DNA of 19,831 bases from a filamentous cyanobacterium CCP2 (lineage in GTDB: Bacteria > Cyanobacteriota > Cyanobacteriia > Elainellales > Elainellaceae): positions 1 to 19,831 of the forward strand of contig PVWD01000095.1 of NCBI GenBank assembly GCA_003003615.1. The letters are read 5' to 3'. The notes beneath the pieces were generated by a model, which made no database searches, was not told where the DNA came from, and was given only the letters and a program-made list of their open reading frames with translations. This document shows positions 2,986 through 17,270 of the stretch, piece after piece; within the stretch, counting starts at the first letter, position 1; each line of letters opens with the position of its first letter. A program made the translations under genes and the position numbers.

Positions 2986-3069
2986 ATTAGTCTATCCTCT
3001 TTTCCACGAAACTAGTTTTAACCAGAGGGCAGCAGTCCCCAACCGCGTCCTTACTACGATTGCTCATAC

Positions 3070-3140
3070 TCACCCTTAATCTGCTCCAGGTTATGCCGAT
3101 CGATCAGTTCCCGAATTCGATCGGTTTGCAAGCACTCTTC
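3070..3140. repeat. Copy 1 of a 71-bp direct repeat (67/71 identical to 4991..5061). It is the displaced 3' fragment of an RHH-like gene and contains an internal palindrome CCGATCGA-N13-TCGATCGG.
   Basis: Direct comparison of the two copies. On the minus strand this copy reads ...PEECLQTDRIRELIDRHNLEQIKGEYEQS*, against ...EEYLQTDRIRELIDRHNLDQIKGDDEAE* for the intact gene at 4975..5181. Confidence 0.8.
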
Positions 3141-3187
3141 TGGTTTACGTAGTAGAGCACAATGCTCGAAAAGCCCCACATGAAGTC

Positions 3188-3369: not shown

Positions 3370-4158
3370 TCATCGTGCTCTTCTCGGTCTCTTTGAAGCC
3401 GCGTTCATTCGTTCTATTTGCGTCTGCTGTTCGTCGAGATTGCGCTCGTGTTCGGCCTTTGCTTCGTGATGGGCGAACTGATCGCCCGATGCTCGGTCTG
3501 AGAGTTCGTGCAGACGGTGCTTGCGGCCATAGAGGACGAGCAGATCCCTAGGACGAAGCTGTAGATCCGCTGGAGGAGTCCCGATGTAATCTTCACGTGA
3601 TCGCTTGACCCCAAGTACGAGGACACCCTCGGCTGCAAGGTTGAGCTCACCAATCGCGTGATTCGCCAACCAGGTACCGTCTTCGACTTCAACCTCAACG
3701 ATCCGGTAATCCTCGCGAAGATGCAGCAGGTCGGCGTAATCTCTCAGATCGAGCGTGGTGTAGCGGGCCAGTGAACGCTCGATCAGGGGCGTGAGCACTC
3801 GGTTGAAGGCCCGGCTTCGAGCCAGTCCGATGAGCACGCAGACGCCCAGCAGCAGCACCAACAAACGCTCCGGTGCCGTCTGCCCAGATCCGACGAAGGA
3901 GAGCAGCAGCGTCGATATCGCCGACACGACTCCGATGGAGCCAAGTCGAATGAGTTGGGTGGCAATCCGCCGCCGCGCTGGGTTCTTCACAATGGACTCT
4001 GCTTCGTCAGTCGTGAATCCGGTGCCTGAGAAGGCCGAGAGTGCTTGGAAACGCGCCACCTCCTCCGATAAACCCGTCATCAAGAAAGCAACGGAGCCTA
4101 CCCGAATCACCAACATTGAAAGGGCCAGAACGAGCAGAAGGGAGACGACAGAAACCAT
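3370..4158 (-). CDS. Membrane protein with a C-terminal TrkA-C/RCK_C regulatory domain (transporter- or channel-associated), foreign high-GC origin
   Basis: 262 aa. N-terminal hydrophobic helices (VVSLLLVLALSMLVIRVGSVAFLM, LGSIGVVSAISTLLLSFVG, LLVLLLGVCVLIGLA) and a TrkA-C-like fold (DYRIVEVEVEDGTWLANHAIGELNLAAEGVLVLGVKRSREDYIGTPPADLQLRPRDLLVLYG). About 60% GC. A strong SD, GAGGAAGGAG, sits 6 nt upstream of the ATG, which is atypical for cyanobacteria. Very few HIP1 sites. Confidence 0.75.
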   Translation of the reverse strand: MVSVVSLLLVLALSMLVIRVGSVAFLMTGLSEEVARFQALSAFSGTGFTTDEAESIVKNPARRRIATQLIRLGSIGVVSAISTLLLSFVGSGQTAPERLLVLLLGVCVLIGLARSRAFNRVLTPLIERSLARYTTLDLRDYADLLHLREDYRIVEVEVEDGTWLANHAIGELNLAAEGVLVLGVKRSREDYIGTPPADLQLRPRDLLVLYGRKHRLHELSDRASGDQFAHHEAKAEHERNLDEQQTQIERMNAASKRPRRAR

Positions 4159-4201: not shown

Positions 4202-4456
4202 TCAGAATGCTCCGATCAGTAGCTCGGAGTAGGATTCAAGTCCTCGTGTGAAGTACGCGCGCAGCACCTCCCTACCCACTACCTTTCCTGACGGATTATC
4301 AAGCAGTTTCGCTGCGACGGGCGATACCAGGATCACATCCGCTGCGTAATGGGACAAGCTGGTATCGAGGTCATGTGAGTTCCATGCCTGTACCCAATGA
4401 TGGGCGAAATCGTGCAGTTCTATCTCGGTGAGCATGGCAGTCTCCGCAAGAGGCAT
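4202..4456 (-). pseudogene. SnoaL-like/NTF2-like small protein, probably C-terminally truncated. Alternative starts: GTG at 4492, ATG at 4435.
   Basis: MLTEIELHDFAHHWVQAWNSHDLDTSLSHYAADVILVSP... matches the NTF2-like/SnoaL polyketide-cyclase-like N-terminal half. The ORF ends after about 85-96 aa, right at the junction with the high-GC segment, whereas the family is usually 120-140 aa. Confidence 0.5.
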
Positions 4457-4479
4457 AACTATATATTCACCGTCAAAAG

Positions 4480-4689
4480 TGCGGGATAACACCCCTATGT
4501 TCCACGATTGTCCATCAGATCTGCGGGATAAAACCAGACTTTCAGGATTTAAACAGAAAAATTGATAGTTAAGTCTGGGGATTTGGGGTGTTATCCGTCA
4601 CATTTGATAGTTAAGTATGGAGATTCGGGTGCCTATCTGTCACTTTTGCTGGATAACATCCTTGATAACGGTATTATCCAGCATCTATC
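4480..4689. promoter_or_regulatory. Cluster of GGATAAC/GTTATCC motifs (repeat-rich att-like or operator-like region). It includes a 42-bp tandem imperfect repeat (4563..4604 and 4605..4646, about 36/42 identical) and a perfect palindrome GCTGGATAA-N17-TTATCCAGC (4648..4682). It lies immediately upstream of the recombinase remnant.
   Basis: Motifs read directly: GCGGGATAACACCCC (4481), GCGGGATAAAACC (4522), GGGGTGTTATCCGTCAC (4585, inverted relative to 4481), GCCTATCTGTCAC, CTGGATAACATCC, TTGATAACGG, GTATTATCCAGC. Each tandem unit carries GTTAAGT. Confidence 0.55.
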
Positions 4690-4830
4690 ATGTCGCAACC
4701 TCAACCGCCACGCCTGCTTGATCAAGTCCGGCGATCGATCCCTCTCAAGCACTTCAGCCTCAAAACTGAGAAATCTTGCGTTCACTACATTCGCGATTTC
4801 ATTCGCGGTAAATGTCATTCAAAGACATAG
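4690..4830 (+). pseudogene. N-terminal remnant (46 codons) of an IntI/XerD-like tyrosine recombinase (Phage_integr_N / PF13495-type SAM-like domain)
   Basis: MSQPQPPRLLDQVRRSIPLKHFSLKTEKSCVHYIRDFIRGKCHSKT* parallels the IntI1 N-terminus ...[33 protein letters not shown]. It ends at a stop after 46 codons. No downstream frame continues a recombinase catalytic domain. Confidence 0.6.
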
Positions 4831-4974
4831 GAGTAATCGTGTAAGAACTACTGAAGTGCAAAATCTAAGCAACGTCGTGCCTTGGCTACGTTTTTTCTTA
4901 ACCTGCAAACCATCGCCTATCTTTTCTGCGATCGCCTCAATCTGATCCACATCAGCTATGCCTGCCAAAAATTC

Positions 4975-5181
4975 TTACTCCGCCTCATCGTCACCCTTAA
5001 TCTGATCCAGGTTATGCCGATCGATCAATTCCCGAATTCGATCGGTTTGCAAGTATTCTTCCAACGCCTCATTGAAGAACTCAGATACAGAGACATTCAT
5101 CAAAGCTGCTAAGGCTTTGACCAGTACGCTTGTTTCAGGATCTAGATAGACTCTAACCTCTGGGTTACGTTTAGCGTTCAC
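4975..5181 (-). CDS. Small RHH (ribbon-helix-helix, CopG/ParD-like) putative DNA-binding or antitoxin protein. Orphan, with no adjacent toxin ORF.
   Basis: 68 aa. RVYLDPETSVLVKALAALMNVSVSEFFNEALEEYL fits the beta-strand plus two-helix RHH pattern. Its 3' 71 bp is duplicated at 3070..3140. Confidence 0.55.
   Translation of the reverse strand: MNAKRNPEVRVYLDPETSVLVKALAALMNVSVSEFFNEALEEYLQTDRIRELIDRHNLDQIKGDDEAE
4991..5061. repeat. Copy 2 of the 71-bp direct repeat, forming the 3' end of the RHH-like CDS
   Basis: 67/71 identity to 3070..3140. Same internal palindrome CCGATCGA-N13-TCGATCGG. Confidence 0.8.
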
Positions 5182-5276
5182 GCGATCGGGTTTGTAGATT
5201 TTTTTCCATACCCTATTGTCTGATATCGAGGTAGTGAGCTATCGTAGTATCGTACTGCCGTAATGACGTAAAACCT

Positions 5277-5408
5277 ATGCCGACCCTCTCCGATGATGAG
5301 TTCAACCTGATCCGCAAACTCCTCATGGACTTACGCTCCATCAAAACCTCCGATCTCGACAAAGCCCTTGCTATCCTGCATAAACGCAACAAACCCATTG
5401 ACCCCTAA
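5277..5408 (+). CDS. Small ORF A1 (43 aa) of a duplicated module. Paralogous to a 27-codon ORF at 8296..8379.
   Basis: MPTLSDDEFNLIRKLLMDLRSIKTSDLDKALAILHKRNKPIDP, against copy B MDLRSIKTSDLDKALAIMSKRTKTNDR. The coding status is uncertain and it could be a non-coding repeated element. Confidence 0.3.
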   Translation: MPTLSDDEFNLIRKLLMDLRSIKTSDLDKALAILHKRNKPIDP

Positions 5409-5600
5409 CCCATCAACCCCTGTACGGGCAAAGCATTGGCAGTGAGATGTATGAATCAAAATCAAAAGTTTCTATGCAAATGCTTCGCCCCTACCCGCGC
5501 AACCCCACAACCGATCGTCCTAAACCCGATCGCCCCTTTCATATGGAGAATTCACCATGCTGATTTTGAATGATGCTCAAGCGTTGATTGTGGAATCATT
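5323..5600. repeat. Copy A of a diverged ~250-bp direct repeat module. Copy B is 8294..8505. The two copies flank the NTPase and pentapeptide gene pair.
   Basis: A near-identical 45-bp core (GGACTTACGCTCCATCAAAACCTCCGATCTCGACAAAGCCCTTGC) occurs at 5328-5372 and 8299-8343. A second conserved block lies around the ATGCTGATTTTGAA start. Confidence 0.75.
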
Positions 5601-5748
5601 GCTGACCAAAATGTTGATTAACGATGCCTATTCGGTTGCCCAATTGGAAGAAGCGATCGGTTGGTTTCAGCAAAAACAAACTGTATCTTGCCCCTTTGAG
5701 CAAACCTGGAGTAGAAATCTGGCTGATGATAAAGATGAGCTGACATGA
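5557..5748 (+). CDS. Small ORF A2 (63 aa) of the duplicated module. Its first ~5 codons (MLILND) are paralogous to a 21-codon ORF at 8465..8530; the two diverge after that.
   Basis: MLILNDAQALIVESLL..., against copy B MLILNDVQALDEIVERLRKVC*. The leaders are conserved: CCCCTTTCATATGGAGAATTCACCATGCTGATTTTGAA versus CCCCTTTGATTTGGAGATTGACCATGCTGATTTTGAA. Confidence 0.3.
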   Translation: MLILNDAQALIVESLLTKMLINDAYSVAQLEEAIGWFQQKQTVSCPFEQTWSRNLADDKDELT

Positions 5749-5837
5749 CCCGCCTAGGGTCTTTTCAGAAACTGATTGAAAAACGATACTGAAACCTTAA
5801 ACTAGGGGAACTCCTCAATTCTCCCTTCCCCCTCCCC

Positions 5838-7310
5838 ATGCCCCTGGACATTCGCCAACTTAACCTGGGTTCCGATTCAGCCGAGCGCGATATCGCCATT
5901 GGACTATCCGAGTATTTCTATCAGAACTCCACCTATCACAAGTTTTTCGACAGCGGCAAAACCATCCTGGTCGGCAATCGGGGCAGCGGCAAAAGTGCCA
6001 TCTTCAAGTACATGGCAGCAGTGGAAGCCCGTAAAGGCAACCTCATCCTCGAATTGTCACCAGAGGAATACTCCTACGAACTATTATCGGAACATTTACG
6101 CAGTGAGAAGGAAGGCTCTTGGGGCAAGCAAAGCTCATACTCGGTCGCCTGGCAATATCTGCTCTATTGCCTCATTTTCAAGAAGATTGTAGAGGAAAAG
6201 CGGGGCTTATTACTGGGGAGTCAAAAGGATATTTTTACCTACGTCCAAAGCCATCTACAGAACCAAAATCTCCATTCCATCAGCATTCTTTTCAACTACT
6301 TGAAGCGGCTAGAGGAAATTAAGCTGGGTAGCCATCAAAGCTTACAGCGATCGCGCGAGCTTCAGAGTCTCTATAGTTTAGAAGAAATCAAGCAACTGCT
6401 GCCGAGCCTCAAAAAAGTATTGGGAAAGCTCAGAGTCAAAGTTTTTATTGATGAACTGGACAAAGGGTGGGATAACTCAGAAGATGCCAAATATTTTCTA
6501 GCTGGACTGTTTCAAGCTGCCCAAAAGCTCAATTTGATCAGCTCTAACTTAAAAATCTATATCTCGATTCGCCAGGAGCTATTTGATAACATTCCTCAAA
6601 TCTACGAAGATGCTCAGAAAATTCGTGAAGACGTAGAGGTGATTCGCTGGGGCAAAGCTGAACTCCTGGAGCTAATTGGACTACGGATTGCCCACTGCTT
6701 CCCGGAACTGCAACAGTCTAATGGTCTGCGCTGCTGGAATTCCATCTTTGTCTCCCAACTGCCCCTCCGCAGCGAAGAATCGATCGGCTCTACATCAGCA
6801 GATTACATCATCGATCGCACCCAACTTCGTCCCCGTGAACTCCTACAGTTTTGCAAACTCTGCATCGAGTACTATAACGGTGGCAAGCGGATTGAGGAAA
6901 ATACTATCTATGCGGCTGAAGAAGTTTATTCAGAACAAAAAATTAAAGATTTAGCCTCAGAATATCGCTTCAAATACCCTCATTTATTAGATCTATTTGA
7001 GGTGTTTCGGGGACATAAAAGCCACTACGAAAAAAATGATCTGGAGTATCTGCTACTGTCTATTGTTTGCGGTGAAGTTGATGTGGATCAGGCAGCATCC
7101 TGGGTGCAGGAACTCGACTACCTGGAACTAAAAAAACTGCTCTGGAATATCGGCTTTCTTAAAGCAAAGGTGCCTCGGCAAATGGGTCAAAACATTGGAG
7201 GCAAAGGTACTTTCTTTGGACACTATGAATTGCCAAGTATCAACCTGGAAAACGTTGAACACTTTTGCATCCACCCCGCTTTCTGCTACTTCCTGAGCCT
7301 CAAATCTTAG
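5838..7310 (+). CDS. P-loop NTPase, NACHT/STAND-like (or other AAA+-like), with a ~200-aa C-terminal helical domain and no fused repeat array
   Basis: 490 aa. Walker A KTILVGNRGSGKSAIFKYM, Walker B RVKVFIDELDKGWD (hhhhDE...D), a TSR-like sensor-1 KIYISIRQE, and a sensor-2-like RPRELLQF. Family assignment is from motifs only. The stop TAG directly abuts the downstream ORF. Confidence 0.8.
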   Translation: MPLDIRQLNLGSDSAERDIAIGLSEYFYQNSTYHKFFDSGKTILVGNRGSGKSAIFKYMAAVEARKGNLILELSPEEYSYELLSEHLRSEKEGSWGKQSSYSVAWQYLLYCLIFKKIVEEKRGLLLGSQKDIFTYVQSHLQNQNLHSISILFNYLKRLEEIKLGSHQSLQRSRELQSLYSLEEIKQLLPSLKKVLGKLRVKVFIDELDKGWDNSEDAKYFLAGLFQAAQKLNLISSNLKIYISIRQELFDNIPQIYEDAQKIREDVEVIRWGKAELLELIGLRIAHCFPELQQSNGLRCWNSIFVSQLPLRSEESIGSTSADYIIDRTQLRPRELLQFCKLCIEYYNGGKRIEENTIYAAEEVYSEQKIKDLASEYRFKYPHLLDLFEVFRGHKSHYEKNDLEYLLLSIVCGEVDVDQAASWVQELDYLELKKLLWNIGFLKAKVPRQMGQNIGGKGTFFGHYELPSINLENVEHFCIHPAFCYFLSLKS

Positions 7311-7376
7311 GTGCTGTTATGCGACAATTTGGTCATACTTTTAAGATTCCATCTAATCGCTATAGAGAGAACCAAT

Positions 7377-8189
7377 ATGCCATGGAACCCGCGAAAATTA
7401 ACGTGTACGCTAGAGTTAGTGGCCCAAAAGATCCCCACTTGGGTCGCCGTGTTGATATCAGTGGTGGGCCTTGCAACGATCGCCCTCTGGGTTCAGGAAG
7501 ATATCGTCATCCGTTCACCGCTTGATCTATTCCAACGCGATACCCTTAAAATTTTCTTTGAGAATGCTGAGTCGTTTGCGATCGTGGCAGCGGTGATTCT
7601 CTACTTCAAAGACGCACCCGATCGCAAAGCCAAGAAACACTACGAAGCGTGGAGTATTATTGACAATGCGGCTGCCGCCAAAGTTGCTACCAGTTACGCG
7701 CGCTTTCAGGCCCTTCAAGACCTCCATAAAGATGGGGTTGCACTTTGTGCTCTGGATGCTCCCCGCGCTAACCTGGCAAAAATTCAGCTCTCCGGTGCCC
7801 ACCTCAATGAGGCGAATTTGCCGGGGGCTGACCTGCGAGAAGCCTATCTGCACCGCTGCGACCTGTCCCAGGCGAATCTACAGGGAGCGAATCTGCAAAA
7901 GGCCAACCTCAAAGGGGCGAACCTGCGTGGAGCGAATCTGCAAGAAGCCAATTTGCGTGATGCCAATCTAAGTGGGGCTGATCTGCGGGAAGCGAATTTA
8001 CGGGGAGCCAACTTACGCAATGCGGAACTCTGGAAATCCCAGTTTTTGGGTGCTGATTTGGAGGATGCAGAACTGAAGTGGGCCGAGCTTCAGGGTGCTG
8101 AACTATACGGGGCAAGGCTGCACCGCACAGTGATGCCCGATGGTAGTTTAGAACAGCAGGAAATTGAGCTTTGGAGCCACTTCCTGTAG
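7377..8189 (+). CDS. Membrane-anchored pentapeptide-repeat protein. Alternative GTG start at 7311 directly abuts the NTPase stop.
   Basis: Two hydrophobic helices (IPTWVAVLISVVGLATIALWV; SFAIVAAVILYF) followed by about 25 A(D/N)LxG-type pentapeptide repeats (ANLQGANLQKANLKGANLRGANLQEANLRDANLSGADLREANLRGANL...). Confidence 0.85.
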   Translation: MPWNPRKLTCTLELVAQKIPTWVAVLISVVGLATIALWVQEDIVIRSPLDLFQRDTLKIFFENAESFAIVAAVILYFKDAPDRKAKKHYEAWSIIDNAAAAKVATSYARFQALQDLHKDGVALCALDAPRANLAKIQLSGAHLNEANLPGADLREAYLHRCDLSQANLQGANLQKANLKGANLRGANLQEANLRDANLSGADLREANLRGANLRNAELWKSQFLGADLEDAELKWAELQGAELYGARLHRTVMPDGSLEQQEIELWSHFL

Positions 8190-8293
8190 GAAAGATGAAA
8201 TTGTGCGACAACTGCGATCGGGGATTTGAAGCGAGAGTACAGATTCTTAAGACCATGAGGGCACAGCTTACCGAAAGTGCCAAACTAAAGTTG

Positions 8294-8505
8294 ATATGGA
8301 CTTACGCTCCATCAAAACCTCCGATCTCGACAAAGCCCTTGCCATCATGAGCAAACGGACTAAAACAAACGATCGCTGACTGGGCGGGCAAGATGCCCAC
8401 CCCACAAGAAGTTAGGCAGACAAGATGTTAATACAAGCCCACCCCTTTGATTTGGAGATTGACCATGCTGATTTTGAACGATGTCCAAGCATTGGATGAA
8501 ATTGT
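8294..8505. repeat. Copy B of the diverged direct repeat module. It carries the short ORFs 8296..8379 and 8465..8530.
   Basis: See copy A. Its central part is shortened and diverged. Confidence 0.75.
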
Positions 8506-8665
8506 CGAGCGACTGCGAAAAGTCTGCTGAATCAAATTGAGAAAGAGAAATGATTTCATTGAAAATGAATCGATCGGCTAACTCTCAACTGATTCGCAGA
8601 TAGTTTAATGCATTAGTCAACTCAGTAAAATTTACAGGTTTCTGTTACGGATTACCAAGAAACGA

Positions 8666-9847
8666 CTAAAGGTTGCGAATGGCTTCAATGATTTGAACAT
8701 TTGCTTTAGGGAATGGGTATTGATCTAACTCATCCACCGTCACCCACTTCACCTCATCACATTCGATCGCCTGTGGTTCTCCATGAACATGACGGCAGTG
8801 ATGAACGTTTAGCGTCACACGAAAATGAGTGTAGGTATGATCGATTGTGATCAGCCGATCGCCCACTTCAATGTCTATGCCAATTTCCTCCTGAATCTCT
8901 CGTCGGATGCAGGCTTCAACTGTTTCATTTGGCTCAATTTTTCCTCCTGGAAATTCCCAGAGTCCTCCCAGCAAACCATCTTGAGGGCGACGATCGATTA
9001 AAATTTGGTTCTGGTCATTCCAAATCACAGCCACTCCAATTTGTTTATGAGGGATGGGGCTGCGGCTTTCAGAAACAGGAAGTTCGCTTTGCATATTCAA
9101 CCGATGAGCACAACAGTAGGGTTGCCAGGGACAGAGTAAGCAGGCTGGGTTCTTGGGGGTGCAGATTGTCGCTCCCAGATCCATCAATGCCTGGTTAAAA
9201 TCGCGGGAGTAAACCGGATCAACCAATGCAGTAGACACCTGCCAAAGCAAGTTTATCGCCTGCTTGGGGGAAACGGTCAACGCGATCAGCCGTGCCAACA
9301 CCCGCTTTACATTACCATCTAAAATGGGCACAGGTTGGCTATAGGCCGCACTTAAAATGCCGCCTGCTGTGGTTCGCCCAATGCCGGGTAACTTCACAAC
9401 CGCCTCAAACTCAACGGGAAACTTTCCTTCATCAGATTGGACGATCGCCTGGGCCGCCCGATGTAAATTCCGGGCACGGGCATAATACCCTAACCCCTGC
9501 CATGCCTTCAAGACGTGCTGTTGGTCTGCGGCGGCGAGGGCGGCGATCGTGGGAAACTGCATCATCCAGCGTTCATAGTATGGAATGACTGTCTTCACCT
9601 GGGTTTGTTGCAGCATAATTTCTGACACCCAGATGGCATAAGGATCTTGGGTTTTGCGCCAGGGTAGATCTCGCCCCGATTCTGCATACCAATCCAAGAG
9701 CGATCGTCGCAGTTCCTCAATGTTTGAGATATCAAAATCCTCCCACTGTCCCAAAGCAGGACTTGTAGGAGGAGCATCAAGATTGGGTTGATTCAAATCA
9801 GCAGTAAACGGGGTAAAACCGTCAGAATTGGGGCGATCGGACTTCAT
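8666..9847 (-). CDS. mutY: A/G-specific adenine DNA glycosylase MutY with a C-terminal NUDIX/MutT-like domain
   Basis: HhH-GPD core (LPGIGRTTAGGILSAAYSQPVPILDGNVKRVLAR), a [4Fe-4S] cysteine cluster (CTPKNPACLLCPWQPYCCA) and a NUDIX-like C-terminus (GLWEFPGGKIEPNETVEACIRREIQEEIGI). Confidence 0.93.
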   Translation of the reverse strand: MKSDRPNSDGFTPFTADLNQPNLDAPPTSPALGQWEDFDISNIEELRRSLLDWYAESGRDLPWRKTQDPYAIWVSEIMLQQTQVKTVIPYYERWMMQFPTIAALAAADQQHVLKAWQGLGYYARARNLHRAAQAIVQSDEGKFPVEFEAVVKLPGIGRTTAGGILSAAYSQPVPILDGNVKRVLARLIALTVSPKQAINLLWQVSTALVDPVYSRDFNQALMDLGATICTPKNPACLLCPWQPYCCAHRLNMQSELPVSESRSPIPHKQIGVAVIWNDQNQILIDRRPQDGLLGGLWEFPGGKIEPNETVEACIRREIQEEIGIDIEVGDRLITIDHTYTHFRVTLNVHHCRHVHGEPQAIECDEVKWVTVDELDQYPFPKANVQIIEAIRNL

Positions 9848-16433: not shown

Positions 16434-17270
16434 ATGTACGACAACGTTTGCAAATTTCTTGCCGAAAGCTACAGTCAGGACTTTGCCCAGTGGTTACTCG
16501 GAGAACCGATCGGCTTGACCCAACTCAGTCCCTCTGAGTTGTCCGTGGCACCGATTCGGGCGGATGCGCTAATTCTGCTGGATTCTGAACAAGTGGTGCT
16601 GCATCTGGAATTCCAAACTCGTCCTGATGCCAGCATTCCCTTTCGCCTAGCAGATTATCGCCTGCGGGTCTATCGTCGGTATCCAAACAAGCAAATGCGT
16701 CAGGTGGTGCTTTACCTCAAGCCCACAGAATCAGAGCTAGTGCATCAAACGGTGTTTGAAATTTCAGGAATGCGCCATGCGTTTGAAGTGATTCGCCTGT
16801 GGGAAGTCCCTGCCGCAGAGCTGCTCCAGTTTCCAGGATTATTACCCCTGGCAGTGCTGAGTCGGGCTGAGGATAAAGTTCAGACTCTTCAGCAAATTGC
16901 CCAGCAGATTGACACCTTGCCAGAGCAGGAAACGAAAAGCAACGTCGCAGCCGCAACTTCGGTGCTAGCAGGATTAGTATTGGAGAAGGCAGTGATTCGA
17001 CAAATTTTGCGGGAGGAGATCGTGAAAGATTCGGTGATCTATCAAGACATCCTGGAACAAGGACTCCAGCAAGGACTCCAACAGGGAGCGCAAGCGGGAG
17101 AAGCCACGTTGGTGTTGCGGCTTGTGAAGCGTCGATTGGGTGATCCGGGACAAGAGGTAGAAACACGGATTCGATCGCTCTCGGTTGACCAATTAGAAGC
17201 CTTGGGCGAAGCCCTGTTGGACTTCACGCAGCCAGAAGAGTTAACAACTTGGTTAGAAGACCATGCATAA
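16434..17270 (+). CDS. Rpn-family recombination-promoting nuclease/putative transposase (PD-(D/E)xK N-terminus plus DUF4351 C-terminus)
   Basis: RADALILL...VVLHLEFQ nuclease core; the C-terminal DUF4351-like ...EATLVLRLVKRRLGD...IRSLSVDQLEALGEALLDF. Multi-copy family in cyanobacteria. Confidence 0.8.
   Translation: MYDNVCKFLAESYSQDFAQWLLGEPIGLTQLSPSELSVAPIRADALILLDSEQVVLHLEFQTRPDASIPFRLADYRLRVYRRYPNKQMRQVVLYLKPTESELVHQTVFEISGMRHAFEVIRLWEVPAAELLQFPGLLPLAVLSRAEDKVQTLQQIAQQIDTLPEQETKSNVAAATSVLAGLVLEKAVIRQILREEIVKDSVIYQDILEQGLQQGLQQGAQAGEATLVLRLVKRRLGDPGQEVETRIRSLSVDQLEALGEALLDFTQPEELTTWLEDHA

Follow-up and report, generated by a model that had tools for sequence, protein, structure and literature searches.

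The window (the whole 19,831-nt stretch of DNA that was analysed) carries at 4975-5748 a nearly intact copy of RHH<>A-B, a conserved and so far uncharacterised three-gene unit in which a small RHH (CopG/Arc-like) gene lies divergent from two tiny genes, A and B. A P-loop ATPase gene and a pentapeptide-repeat gene follow this copy (copy 1) and are followed in turn by related sequences (copy 2, 8194-8530) that appear to be what is left of a second, decayed unit belonging to another, older lineage of paralogues (A2-type). The direct repeats that bracket the gene pair are thus probably near-intact and wrecked copies of the same tiny-gene unit, and the bracket itself a by-product of tandem units recombining and decaying.

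The RHH<>A-B unit and its small proteins

The unit was defined in the present analysis from ~40 loci, and RHH<>A-B was found in ~35 loci of Leptolyngbya-like cyanobacteria, with a few copies per genome. Its setting is usually a variable region with toxin-antitoxin, defence, mobile or Tn7-like genes, often inside or beside Tn7-like elements, as in the arrangements A-B-TnsD and A-B-C beside tniQ/tnsC/tnsB. Genes 3' of the unit are often on the opposite strand in distant loci, so that a description of the unit as heading its cargo is valid only for a subset. Searches of Pfam, NCBIfam, PADLOC and PHROG returned no family for the unit.

In most loci A is immediately preceded by an RHH homologue on the opposite strand; in copy 1 the distance between the RHH gene and the A start is 95 nt, and copy 2 has no RHH gene. 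The RHH protein also gave weak matches to RelB/antitoxin families. Repeats occur in the divergent control region of copy 1 (Table 1), equivalent regions elsewhere harbour paralogue-specific direct or inverted repeats, and the region is missing from copy 2. The RHH protein may repress the divergent promoter, with A-B as an RHH-repressed small operon, and A and B may be co-translated small proteins that act with or on downstream genes. On the far side of the unit, 3063-3140 duplicates part of the RHH 3' end and forms a scar in mirror image.

Gene A has 21 genomic homologues, with B downstream in every one, and further tblastn matches to A were found directly 5' of B in ~30 loci; gene B has 95 database homologues of ~68 aa (family length ~67 aa), the short database matches being fragments from short contigs. 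The A stop and the B start in distant genomes are separated by 1-35 nt or overlap by 1-17 nt, and gene order is fixed among homologues with protein identities down to 53-69%. Substitutions are enriched at third codon positions, and dN/dS is ~0.24 for A and ~0.11 for B. A and B are therefore conserved small proteins under purifying selection, a possibility raised for the mini-ORFs in a first-pass annotation of this DNA and now upheld by the families themselves, by this selection and by linkage to an antitoxin-like or repressor-like RHH gene.

The A motif, TLSxDExxLIxxLLxxLRxIKxxDxDKAL, is full length in copy 1 and represented by codons 17-43 only in copy 2. Two C-terminal types were distinguished: ILHKRNKPID(P/S), carried by the window A1, by the A copies of Egbenema and by L029; and IMSKRTKTNDR, carried by the window A2, by the intact P0004/L003 gene and by the degraded A' of Egbenema. 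The B motif is MLxLNDAQA...QLEEAIxWF...SCPFEQxW...EIVRxLR (~67 aa), and neither window copy is full length, B1 having residues 1-59 with a replaced tail and B2 only residues 1-10 and a tail. Alignment with Egbenema and L003 showed the B1 C-terminus to be a local 63-to-19 nt replacement after ...NLAD; an insertion splitting the gene was considered for this tail and rejected on the same alignment. B is predicted to form three helices, although the structure model is of low confidence (pLDDT 66) and matched no known fold. Neither A nor B had a match in Pfam, NCBIfam, PADLOC, PHROGs or PDB.

Two unequal copies around the ATPase-pentapeptide pair

Table 1. Features of the window around the RHH<>A-B unit and its cargo genes
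Feature	Position	Strand	Remarks
Partial copy of RHH 3' end	3063..3140	-	92% to 4984-5061 (repeat D3); tblastn RHH residues 41-66
Integrase-like N-terminal fragment, 46 aa	4690-4830		Phage_int_SAM_4, 17.4 bits vs cut-off 27
RHH (CopG/Arc-like) gene, 68 aa, divergent partner of A-B	4975..5181	-	Pfam RHH_1 E=1.4e-4, above cut-off
Divergent RHH/A control region, putative operator	5182..5276	.	TATCGTA-G-TATCGTA and CTGCCGTAATGACGTAA repeats
Gene A copy 1 (A1-type), intact, 43 aa	5277..5408	+	8 database homologues; 21 genomic homologues
A1-B1 spacer	5409..5556	.	Long imperfect hairpin repeat (about 5422-5494) and B leader with GGAG
Gene B copy 1, 63 aa	5557..5748	+	95 homologues; codons 1-59 family-like, C-terminus altered
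P-loop ATPase, Sll1717 family, cargo gene 1	5838..7310	+	NCBIfam NF047389
Pentapeptide-repeat protein, cargo gene 2, 270 aa	7377..8189	+	Pfam Pentapeptide (PF00805) E=1e-40
Orphan B tail (codons 57-67, DEIVRQLRSGI, and stop)	8194..8229	+	4 nt past pentapeptide stop
66-nt spacer	8230..8295	.	In Egbenema after a B gene, before 80aa-136aa-NACHT cargo
Putative A2-type gene A remnant, codons 17-43	8296..8379	+	Tail IMSKRTKTNDR; no promoter, no RHH partner
A2-B2 spacer	8380..8464	.	Dispersed repeat GGGCAAGATGCCCACCCCACAAG (8386-8408) and B leader
Putative B2 remnant, codons 1-10 and tail-like end (MLILNDVQAL-DEIVERLRKVC)	8465..8530	+	Codons ~11-56 deleted

The first-pass annotation had described a ~250-bp module, 5323-5600, that reappears at 8294-8505 with a diverged centre. 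Repeat search and alignment within the window confirmed the recurrence (5325-5409 versus 8296-8380, 82% identity over 85 nt; 5550-5586 versus 8458-8494, 86% over 37 nt) and replaced the single module with a pair of conserved coding blocks whose intervening spacers, 148 nt in copy 1 and 85 nt in copy 2, are unrelated. The 45-bp core also held, GGACTTACGCTCCATCAAAACCTCCGATCTCGACAAAGCCCTTGC being exact at 5327-5371 and 8298-8342 only (0 expected; 0 matches in 200 shuffles), as did the leader and start CCCCTTT(C/G)AT(A/T)TGGAGA..ACCATGCTGATTTTGAA, which aligned in both copies. The centre has indeed diverged, because the spacers carry small dispersed repeats that are unrelated to each other: 5428-5494, within a predicted hairpin of -28.8 kcal/mol (z=-3.7), also matches an unrelated Egbenema site (L001 19977-19912), and the 23-mer of the A2-B2 spacer recurs at unrelated positions in L002, L006 and L029. 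Two short ORFs per copy were present as claimed, although in copy 1 the start of the first ORF lies 16 codons 5' of the one given (MPTLSDDEFNLIRKLL-MDLRSIK..., 5277-5408), and those of copy 2 are open but truncated (27 aa and 21 aa versus 43 and ~67 aa in the families). A third related piece (8194-8217 versus 8495-8518, 79% identity, repeat D13) was absent from that annotation.

The first cargo gene encodes a member of the Sll1717 ATPase family (290.2 bits versus the NF047389 cut-off of 75; residues 10-486 aligned to profile positions 1-454), and the second a protein with tandem A(D/N)LXX repeats (137 bits versus the PF00805 cut-off of 20.2) and a hydrophobic N-terminal stretch, with a membrane location judged by eye only. 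The length of the latter is counted from the ATG shared with Egbenema, and the Egbenema and L003 orthologues are also 270 aa. The order A-B-Sll1717 ATPase-pentapeptide is kept in Egbenema and in metagenome contig L003 with 92-93% DNA identity.

The B-tail 28-mer follows the pentapeptide gene in 3/3 ATPase loci and occurs at the 3' end of close-clade B copies, and at no other position across the 31 loci scanned. In Egbenema and L003 a 28-34 nt version of this tail flanks the ATPase-pentapeptide pair left and right, the right-hand one being kept in 3/3 genomes; a site-specific event would yield the same pattern. From the orphan tail the window can be followed in Egbenema (8194-8295 against L001 6173-6274, 85% by blastn) until homology ends exactly at 8295. 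To the left of this breakpoint (8295|8296) lies the sequence found 3' of Egbenema B'; the L003 counterpart of this tail and spacer runs into 80aa'-136aa-NACHT.

Origin of the bracketing repeats

Given these junctions, we propose that units in tandem recombined through their shared sequence and then decayed, the bracket being a leftover that bears the scars of homologous and illegitimate recombination among them. One deletion would have joined the region 3' of a B gene (tail and 66-nt spacer) to A2 codon 17, and would have taken with it any material in between, a place that an 80aa-136aa-NACHT cargo occupies in two relatives; a second deletion would have removed B2 codons 11-56. RecA-type recombination between unit copies may in this way move, reorder and delete cargo. 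The bracket is read as recombination scars because no recombinase lies between the copies and because breakpoints vary between genomes, cargo being found between A/B pieces with breakpoint codons as varied as B 32-67, 36-67, 57-67 and 1-23 and A 17-43 and 20-42. Partial B copies are restricted to the close clade, every distant locus having a single intact B. No empty site was found in relatives, where synteny ends exactly at the mutY stop and is followed by unrelated genes, and the order of events is therefore reconstructed rather than observed. The mobile or duplicated cassette of the first-pass annotation survives in a weaker form only, in that clade cargo repeatedly lies between whole or partial A/B copies and its order varies between genomes.

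A site-specific origin, with the B tail (perhaps also the A core) as an att-like site at which cargo circles enter as in an integron or integrative island and leave flanking direct repeats, is improbable. It would account for the 28-34 nt tail GATGAAATTGTGCG(A/G)CAACTGCGATCG that flanks the pair in Egbenema and L003 (right side only in the window), for the presence, 150 nt from the RHH gene, of repeated GGGATAAC sites in a cluster together with an N-terminal fragment resembling an integrase, and for the RHH 3'-end partial copy that brackets other genes in mirror image. However, the partial copies vary in length and breakpoint as listed above, RHH 41-66 included; they are coding sequence of paralogous genes rather than structured sites; and distant genomes with intact units have no extra tails. 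The integrase fragment is a 46-aa pseudogene below the Pfam cut-off, with CTG in place of its ATG in relatives, which also share its stop; no intact IntI-type tyrosine recombinase was found beside the array and no recombinase gene in or beside the bracketed segment. The elements flanking cargo are gene fragments, and the intergenic SnoaL/TrkA_C gap, at 43 nt, would not accommodate attC. An integrative element would have near-identical repeats of fixed extent and an integrase inside, whereas these copies are 82-86% identical with unrelated centres. The attL/attR-like junctions suggested earlier are not supported, the two copies being old paralogues with different C-terminal tails and spacer inserts, no recombinase between them and breakpoint codons that differ among genomes. 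Direct same-strand repeats with a 45-nt identical core could also suggest recent duplication, with copy 2 derived from copy 1 as a long target duplication upon insertion or tandem duplication of the ATPase-pentapeptide pair. Close relatives show almost no DNA-level variation across the entire A gene, and the identical core therefore cannot date a duplication; outside the core, the A tail and spacer repeat differ as two paralogue lineages do across genomes, the window A2 and spacer match Egbenema A' better (86.7%) than they match the A1-type gene (84.5%), and Egbenema has A-B-ATPase-pentapeptide without a downstream A2-B2. We regard recent duplication as distinctly improbable.

That copy 2 still functions, its mini-ORFs (27 aa, 21 aa) as small proteins or the whole as a regulatory leader, is very unlikely, even though both ORFs are open, B2 retains the conserved GGAG leader and ATG, and the A2 remnant is only one residue off an intact A2-type protein. 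A2 lacks 16 conserved N-terminal residues, a promoter and an RHH partner; from B2, 46 of 67 residues are missing, among them those of the invariant SCPFEQxW block; and truncated forms of this kind do not recur as conserved proteins. The repeated regulatory leader that had been proposed does not fit a copy that is without a promoter region and has nothing to regulate, since the next gene is the convergent mutY. The refuting scenario of the first-pass annotation, a high-copy, MITE-like, non-coding dispersed repeat placed around the gene pair by chance, has almost no probability for the module: the unit is indeed multi-copy, but with few copies per genome rather than tens or hundreds; its conserved blocks are the ORFs under purifying selection already described, in fixed order with homologues at 53-69% protein identity; and the repeat search of the window found no terminal inverted repeats or target duplications. 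It does apply to the diverged centres, both spacers carrying short repeats known from unrelated loci that resemble the small dispersed repeats of cyanobacteria (HIP1-rich hairpin/MITE-like), which explain the spacers only and not the conserved coding blocks. Of the earlier interpretation as a whole, the conserved small proteins stand, and the recombination and decay of tandem units remains the likely origin of the bracket.

Comparison with known systems

The unit resembles type II toxin-antitoxin systems with an RHH antitoxin (RelB, ParD, CopG type) in its small genes, its RHH part, its several copies per genome and its place among other toxin-antitoxin pairs in variable islands. It differs in having three genes rather than two and an RHH gene that is divergent from A-B, on the opposite strand in all loci, instead of in an adjacent co-directional operon; there is also no recognised toxin partner, A and B being without match in any of the databases named above.

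There is a parallel in placement with the small RHH repressors (Arc_1 and Arc_2, 53-72 aa) and CvkR of cyanobacterial type V-K CRISPR-associated Tn7-like transposons, which lie in reverse orientation 5' of the genes that they presumably regulate (Ziemann et al. 2023, PMC9938897). The 68-aa RHH protein here is likewise encoded in reverse orientation directly upstream, in cyanobacteria and in Tn7-like contexts, the unit lying 5' of tnsD or beside tniQ/tnsC/tnsB in some loci. The divergent partner here is A-B rather than cas12k, which was found in none of the loci; the likeness is one of size, orientation and context, and the RHH protein here is a putative repressor. The window has neither a cas12k nor a transposase gene.

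The surroundings of the unit also resemble the cargo and defence islands of Tn7-like elements (Benler et al. 2021, PMC8649781), as a P-loop ATPase, NACHT, toxin-antitoxin pairs and IS fragments adjoin it. Unlike such cargo regions, the window island abuts the mutY 3' end with no recognisable transposon boundary, and no Tn7 genes (tnsB/tnsC/tniQ, tnsD) or end repeats were found in the window. Distant loci do have Tn7-like features (L007, L010, L012, L014, L019, L021, L034, L035, L046 and L047), and the element that encloses the unit in distant genomes has identifiable left-end repeats.

With integron cassette arrays the locus shares short promoter-poor cargo, recurring elements between cargo genes, strain-variable cargo order and a nearby integrase-like fragment; the recurring elements here are paralogous protein genes or their fragments and probably not attC hairpins, with variable breakpoints and a 46-aa integrase relic. 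A broader reading, speculative and on balance unlikely, is that RHH<>A-B is an undescribed accessory module of cyanobacterial Tn7-like/CAST elements, whose small proteins would cooperate with, or regulate, target selectors such as TnsD and neighbouring defence cargo and whose copies would provide portable homology for cargo capture, reordering and loss. If true, copies of RHH<>A-B would constitute a recombinase-independent, gene-based analogue of the integron cassette array.

Two small protein genes and a divergent RHH gene

The conserved blocks of the repeat are two small protein genes, A (43 amino acids) and B (about 67 amino acids). A first-pass annotation had suggested that its mini-ORFs could be conserved small proteins, and this was borne out by homologues, a third-position substitution bias and low dN/dS. 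Gene B has 95 database homologues, nearly all of 66–70 amino acids, from Leptolyngbya, Elainella, Oculatella, Thainema, Egbenema, related genomes and metagenomes; the B1 protein is listed under the source name 'filamentous cyanobacterium CCP1'. Gene A of copy 1 (A1) has its true start at 5277 (MPTLSDDEFNLIRKLLMDLRSIK...), giving 43 amino acids; the gene has 8 close database homologues, and tblastn adds about 30 loci where A, at 53–69% identity, stands directly 5' of B. In a comparison of 21 A and 23 B sequences, changes cluster at third codon positions, with a median dN/dS of 0.24 (A) and 0.11 (B). Among distant genomes, A ends 1–35 nt ahead of the B start or overlaps B by 1–17 nt, a spacing typical of a co-translated pair.

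A profile of B searched against 1.84 billion representative proteins gave only 34 matches, all small, with no multidomain relatives among them; B forms a narrow family that is never embedded in a larger protein. Neither A nor B matched a family in Pfam, NCBIfam, PADLOC or PHROGs, and sequence profile searches of the PDB returned no credible match for either. The AlphaFold model of B has three helices at low confidence (pLDDT 66) and had no Foldseek match in the PDB at E ≤ 0.001. Comparison of the A and B profiles with hhalign placed their N-termini in register but was not significant (probability 3.8%, E = 0.011). For an RNA element at the locus, Rfam gave one spurious sub-threshold match only, and a promoter and terminator scan gave signal at background level. 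No B match was found in PLSDB plasmids, and an exact 27-mer of the B tail had 0 matches in JGI metagenomes.

Just 5' of A, most loci have a ribbon-helix-helix (RHH) gene on the opposite strand, separated from A by 95–170 nt with direct or inverted repeats that differ by paralogue, the TATCGTA-G-TATCGTA repeat of the window being one of these. Cyanobacterial CRISPR-associated transposons carry Arc-like RHH genes in reverse orientation upstream of cas12k (PMC9938897); by analogy with this precedent, and with RHH repressors generally, we infer that the RHH protein may control the divergent RHH/A promoter region. The terms ribbon-helix, CopG, MerR, Xre and 'small ORF' are absent from a survey of cyanobacterial Tn7-like elements (PMC9881144).

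The RHH 3' end (residues 41–66) is itself duplicated in the window (3063–3140 versus 4984–5061, 92%), so that the TrkA_C and SnoaL-like genes stand between a partial 3' end and the intact RHH gene, just as the ATPase pair stands between the A/B copies; the one bracket mirrors the other across the unit.

Features of the window around the two unit copies
Feature	Position	Strand	Remarks
ORF holding partial RHH end	3054–3179	minus	
TrkA_C-domain membrane gene	3370–4158	minus	between RHH-end copies
SnoaL-like gene	4202–4492	minus	between RHH-end copies
42-nt tandem repeat	4562–4648		
46-aa ORF	4690–4830		resembles integron-type integrase N-terminus; Phage_int_SAM_4 E = 0.006, below cut-off
RHH gene	4975–5181	minus	Pfam RHH_1 above cut-off; holds the other RHH end
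A1	5277–5408		
B1	5557–5748		
Sll1717-family ATPase	5838–7310	plus	NF047389, 290 bits versus cut-off 75
Pentapeptide-repeat protein	7377–8189	plus	Pfam Pentapeptide E = 1e-40
Orphan B tail	8194–8229		DEIVRQLRSGI and stop; directly past pentapeptide gene stop, then 66 nt
A2	8296–8379		codons 17–43 of an A gene
B2	8465–8530		codons 1–10 fused to tail-like end; about codons 11–56 gone

Unit copies and cargo in the window and its relatives

The repeat is real: its 45-mer occurs exactly twice in the window, with none expected (200 shuffles). The first-pass module stood as far as its repeated coding blocks are concerned, which align pairwise within the window at 82% over 85 nt (5325–5409 versus 8296–8380) and 86% over 37 nt (5550–5586 versus 8458–8494), with unrelated sequence of 148 nt (copy 1) and 85 nt (copy 2) between them; it had overlooked a third related piece, 4 nt past the pentapeptide gene stop (8194–8217 versus 8495–8518, 79%). 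The identical 45-mer gives no indication of age, since all close relatives have almost the same sequence over the first 110 nt of A.

The order A, B, Sll1717-family ATPase, pentapeptide gene is common to the window, Egbenema (loci L001/L005) and the metagenome contig L003, at 92–93% DNA identity. Plasmid relatives of the ATPase are distant only, and sll1717 was mentioned in no paper that we found. The Egbenema B upstream of the ATPase is full length (67 amino acids, ending ...NLADEIVRQLRSAI); at the end of B1, 63 nt of the Egbenema equivalent are replaced by 19 nt, yielding ...NLADDKDELT. The last 8 B1 codons and the sequence downstream (5734–5752) are unlike those of all relatives. B1 (63 amino acids), the only full-size B at the window locus, has lost the conserved EIVRxLR end and could be impaired too. 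That the ATPase-pentapeptide pair had inserted into and split a B gene is excluded by the full-length Egbenema B before the same ATPase; the idea is wrong because the window differs from Egbenema only by this local replacement. The A1–B1 spacer holds a long imperfect hairpin (z = -3.7) that also matches an unrelated Egbenema site. Locus L029, from a relative, matches the window from the region 5' of the RHH gene through that gene and A as far as the hairpin; unrelated genes follow, and B, the ATPase and the pentapeptide gene are absent.

The tail of A2, IMSKRTKTNDR, resembles that of intact genes in P0004/L003 (IMSKRTKANDR) and of a decayed Egbenema copy, and the other tail type, ILHKRNKPID(P/S), is found in A1, the intact Egbenema copies and L029. 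Since the tail types are split across genomes, two A lineages are older than the divergence of these organisms. This speaks against copy 2 being a recent duplicate, which is unlikely; judged by its sequence, it is the wreck of a different paralogue and no fresh duplicate of copy 1. The A2–B2 spacer carries GGGCAAGATGCCCACCCCACAAG, a short repeat also present at unrelated sites in three other loci. Copy 2 has neither RHH gene nor promoter region and runs into the convergent mutY, and there is little likelihood that its mini-ORFs are functional or that it serves as a leader.

In Egbenema the equivalent of the 66-nt spacer past the orphan B tail lies after a B gene and before a cargo of an 80-aa gene, a 136-aa gene and a NACHT gene. 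Homology to Egbenema ends exactly at 8295, where A2 codon 17 starts. L003 has the tail and spacer past the pentapeptide gene, then a partly deleted 80-aa gene and the 136aa-NACHT genes. A 28-mer B tail is present past the pentapeptide gene in all three genomes (window, Egbenema, L003) and, in the latter two, also forms the end of the B that precedes the ATPase. The order of cargo varies by genome and breakpoints fall at many different codons. L003 reads RHH, an A2-type A, full B, [DUF4160-DUF2442], B residues 32–67, ATPase, pentapeptide, tail and 136aa-NACHT; Egbenema L001 reads A' residues 20–42, B' residues 36–67, spacer, [80aa, 136aa, NACHT], A, B, ATPase, pentapeptide and tail; and Egbenema L006 reads RHH, A, B, [DUF2283 pair], A, B residues 1–23 and apparent transposase fragments, the last judged by eye from ORF translations. 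Partial B copies occur only in this close clade; at distant loci there is always a single intact B, with no stray B heads or tails.

Mobile settings and island borders

Egbenema holds at least three full B copies, with fragments and one A-only site, and several other genomes have two or three copies of the unit. Its neighbours at the surveyed loci are mostly accessory or mobile genes. At loci L010, L012, L014/L038, L034 and L035, tnsD lies directly 3' of B: a gene for a full-length TnsD (TniQ and TnsD domains) starts less than 100 nt past the B stop, on the strand of A-B. At least three genomes have this arrangement, as do some metagenome contigs. Immediately upstream of its RHH gene, L014 has Cas7-like and Cas5 genes, which suggests a position of the unit between Cascade genes and tnsD in a type I CAST-like element. 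At L007, L015, L019, L021, L037, L046 and L047, B is followed by a conserved gene 'C' of 98–115 amino acids (motif FPDVETPRFLYGD) with no Pfam or PHROG match, and sometimes then by an HTH-like gene 'D' (roughly 105 amino acids); beyond C, with or without D, convergent tniQ/tnsC/tnsB are found at L007, L019, L021, L046 and L047. L021 has the left-end repeats of a Tn7-like element beyond tnsB and no inverted copy of them within 10 kb on the other side, and the unit therefore lies inside the element. Other neighbours include an IS200-like transposase, a relaxase with NikA, ParE/Phd, DUF433/DUF5615, PIN, HepT/MNT, HerA and NACHT. L025, a 1.8-kb Thermosynechococcaceae MAG contig, has B twice, 1.5 kb apart, with a HepT/MNT-like pair and a D-like fragment in between; tandem units enclosing a toxin-antitoxin pair thus also occur outside the Egbenema/CCP1 clade.

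The window has no Tn7 genes and no end-like repeats, and a Tn7 end adjoining mutY was ruled out as no cluster of such repeats is present. Right of 8666 lie the housekeeping genes mutY, DUF760, SDR, XdhC, Tex and DJ-1. Two relatives (L032 and L033; MutY 87% and 79% identical) retain DUF760-mutY and diverge exactly at the mutY stop, past which they carry unrelated accessory genes that differ by genome, including a BrnT toxin in L032. Synteny is lost at this stop and unrelated genes lie there, which marks the sequence downstream of mutY as a variable spot; it (stop at 8666) behaves like an insertion or variable hotspot. The empty site that had been proposed was not recovered in these two MutY relatives, which show no A/B remnants, att-like duplication or precise scar past mutY.

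A conserved non-coding block (4456–4974) adjoins the RHH 3' end and is 88–91% identical in two relatives. Five GGGATAACACC-like sites, in both orientations, fall within 4483–4680, and the window total is 10 versus 3.5 expected. The 46-aa integrase-like ORF is an old pseudogene, because two relatives have CTG for its ATG. Outside the bracketed region, a 278-aa protein (16434–17270) has a C-terminal DUF4351 (E = 6e-21), a domain typically found in Rpn-type recombination-promoting nuclease or transposase-like proteins.

Origin of the bracket and significance of the unit

In structural terms, the bracket is probably the outcome of tandem units recombining and decaying. RHH<>A-B units, each with different cargo, would have stood in tandem and undergone homologous recombination between their near-identical stretches, and surplus copies would have been degraded by illegitimate deletions, IS insertion and small-repeat insertion. 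For the window, the simplest history would be a deletion from the spacer end to A2 codon 17, which would have taken out a cargo of the 80aa-136aa-NACHT type. We consider a site-specific (att or integron-like) origin improbable: although the B-tail repeat around the ATPase pair, the nearby integrase-like relic and the clustered GGGATAAC sites would fit it, the breakpoints are variable, the integrase is dead and stray tails are absent elsewhere. It is likewise unlikely that the module, whose conserved blocks are genes A and B, is a MITE. The 45-nt identical core should in principle suffice for RecA-dependent deletion or circularisation of 5372–8342.

The origin of the repeat is thus ordinary, namely paralogous gene units and their decay products; the gain from the analysis is two conserved small-protein families (43 and about 67 amino acids) found in no curated library searched. 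Together with an RHH protein, these two tiny proteins make up a three-gene unit that is undescribed and of narrow distribution, and that is linked to cyanobacterial Tn7-like elements and to the reshuffling of defence-like cargo. Should the unit control or aid transposon target selection or defence cargo, it would be an extra component for CRISPR-associated transposons, which are now being engineered; if it supplies homology only, it would exemplify island rebuilding without a dedicated recombinase. For annotators it is a reason to keep such tiny ORFs. As to known kinds, we rate it as resembling RHH-controlled small accessory operons, together with the gene remnants of variable islands.
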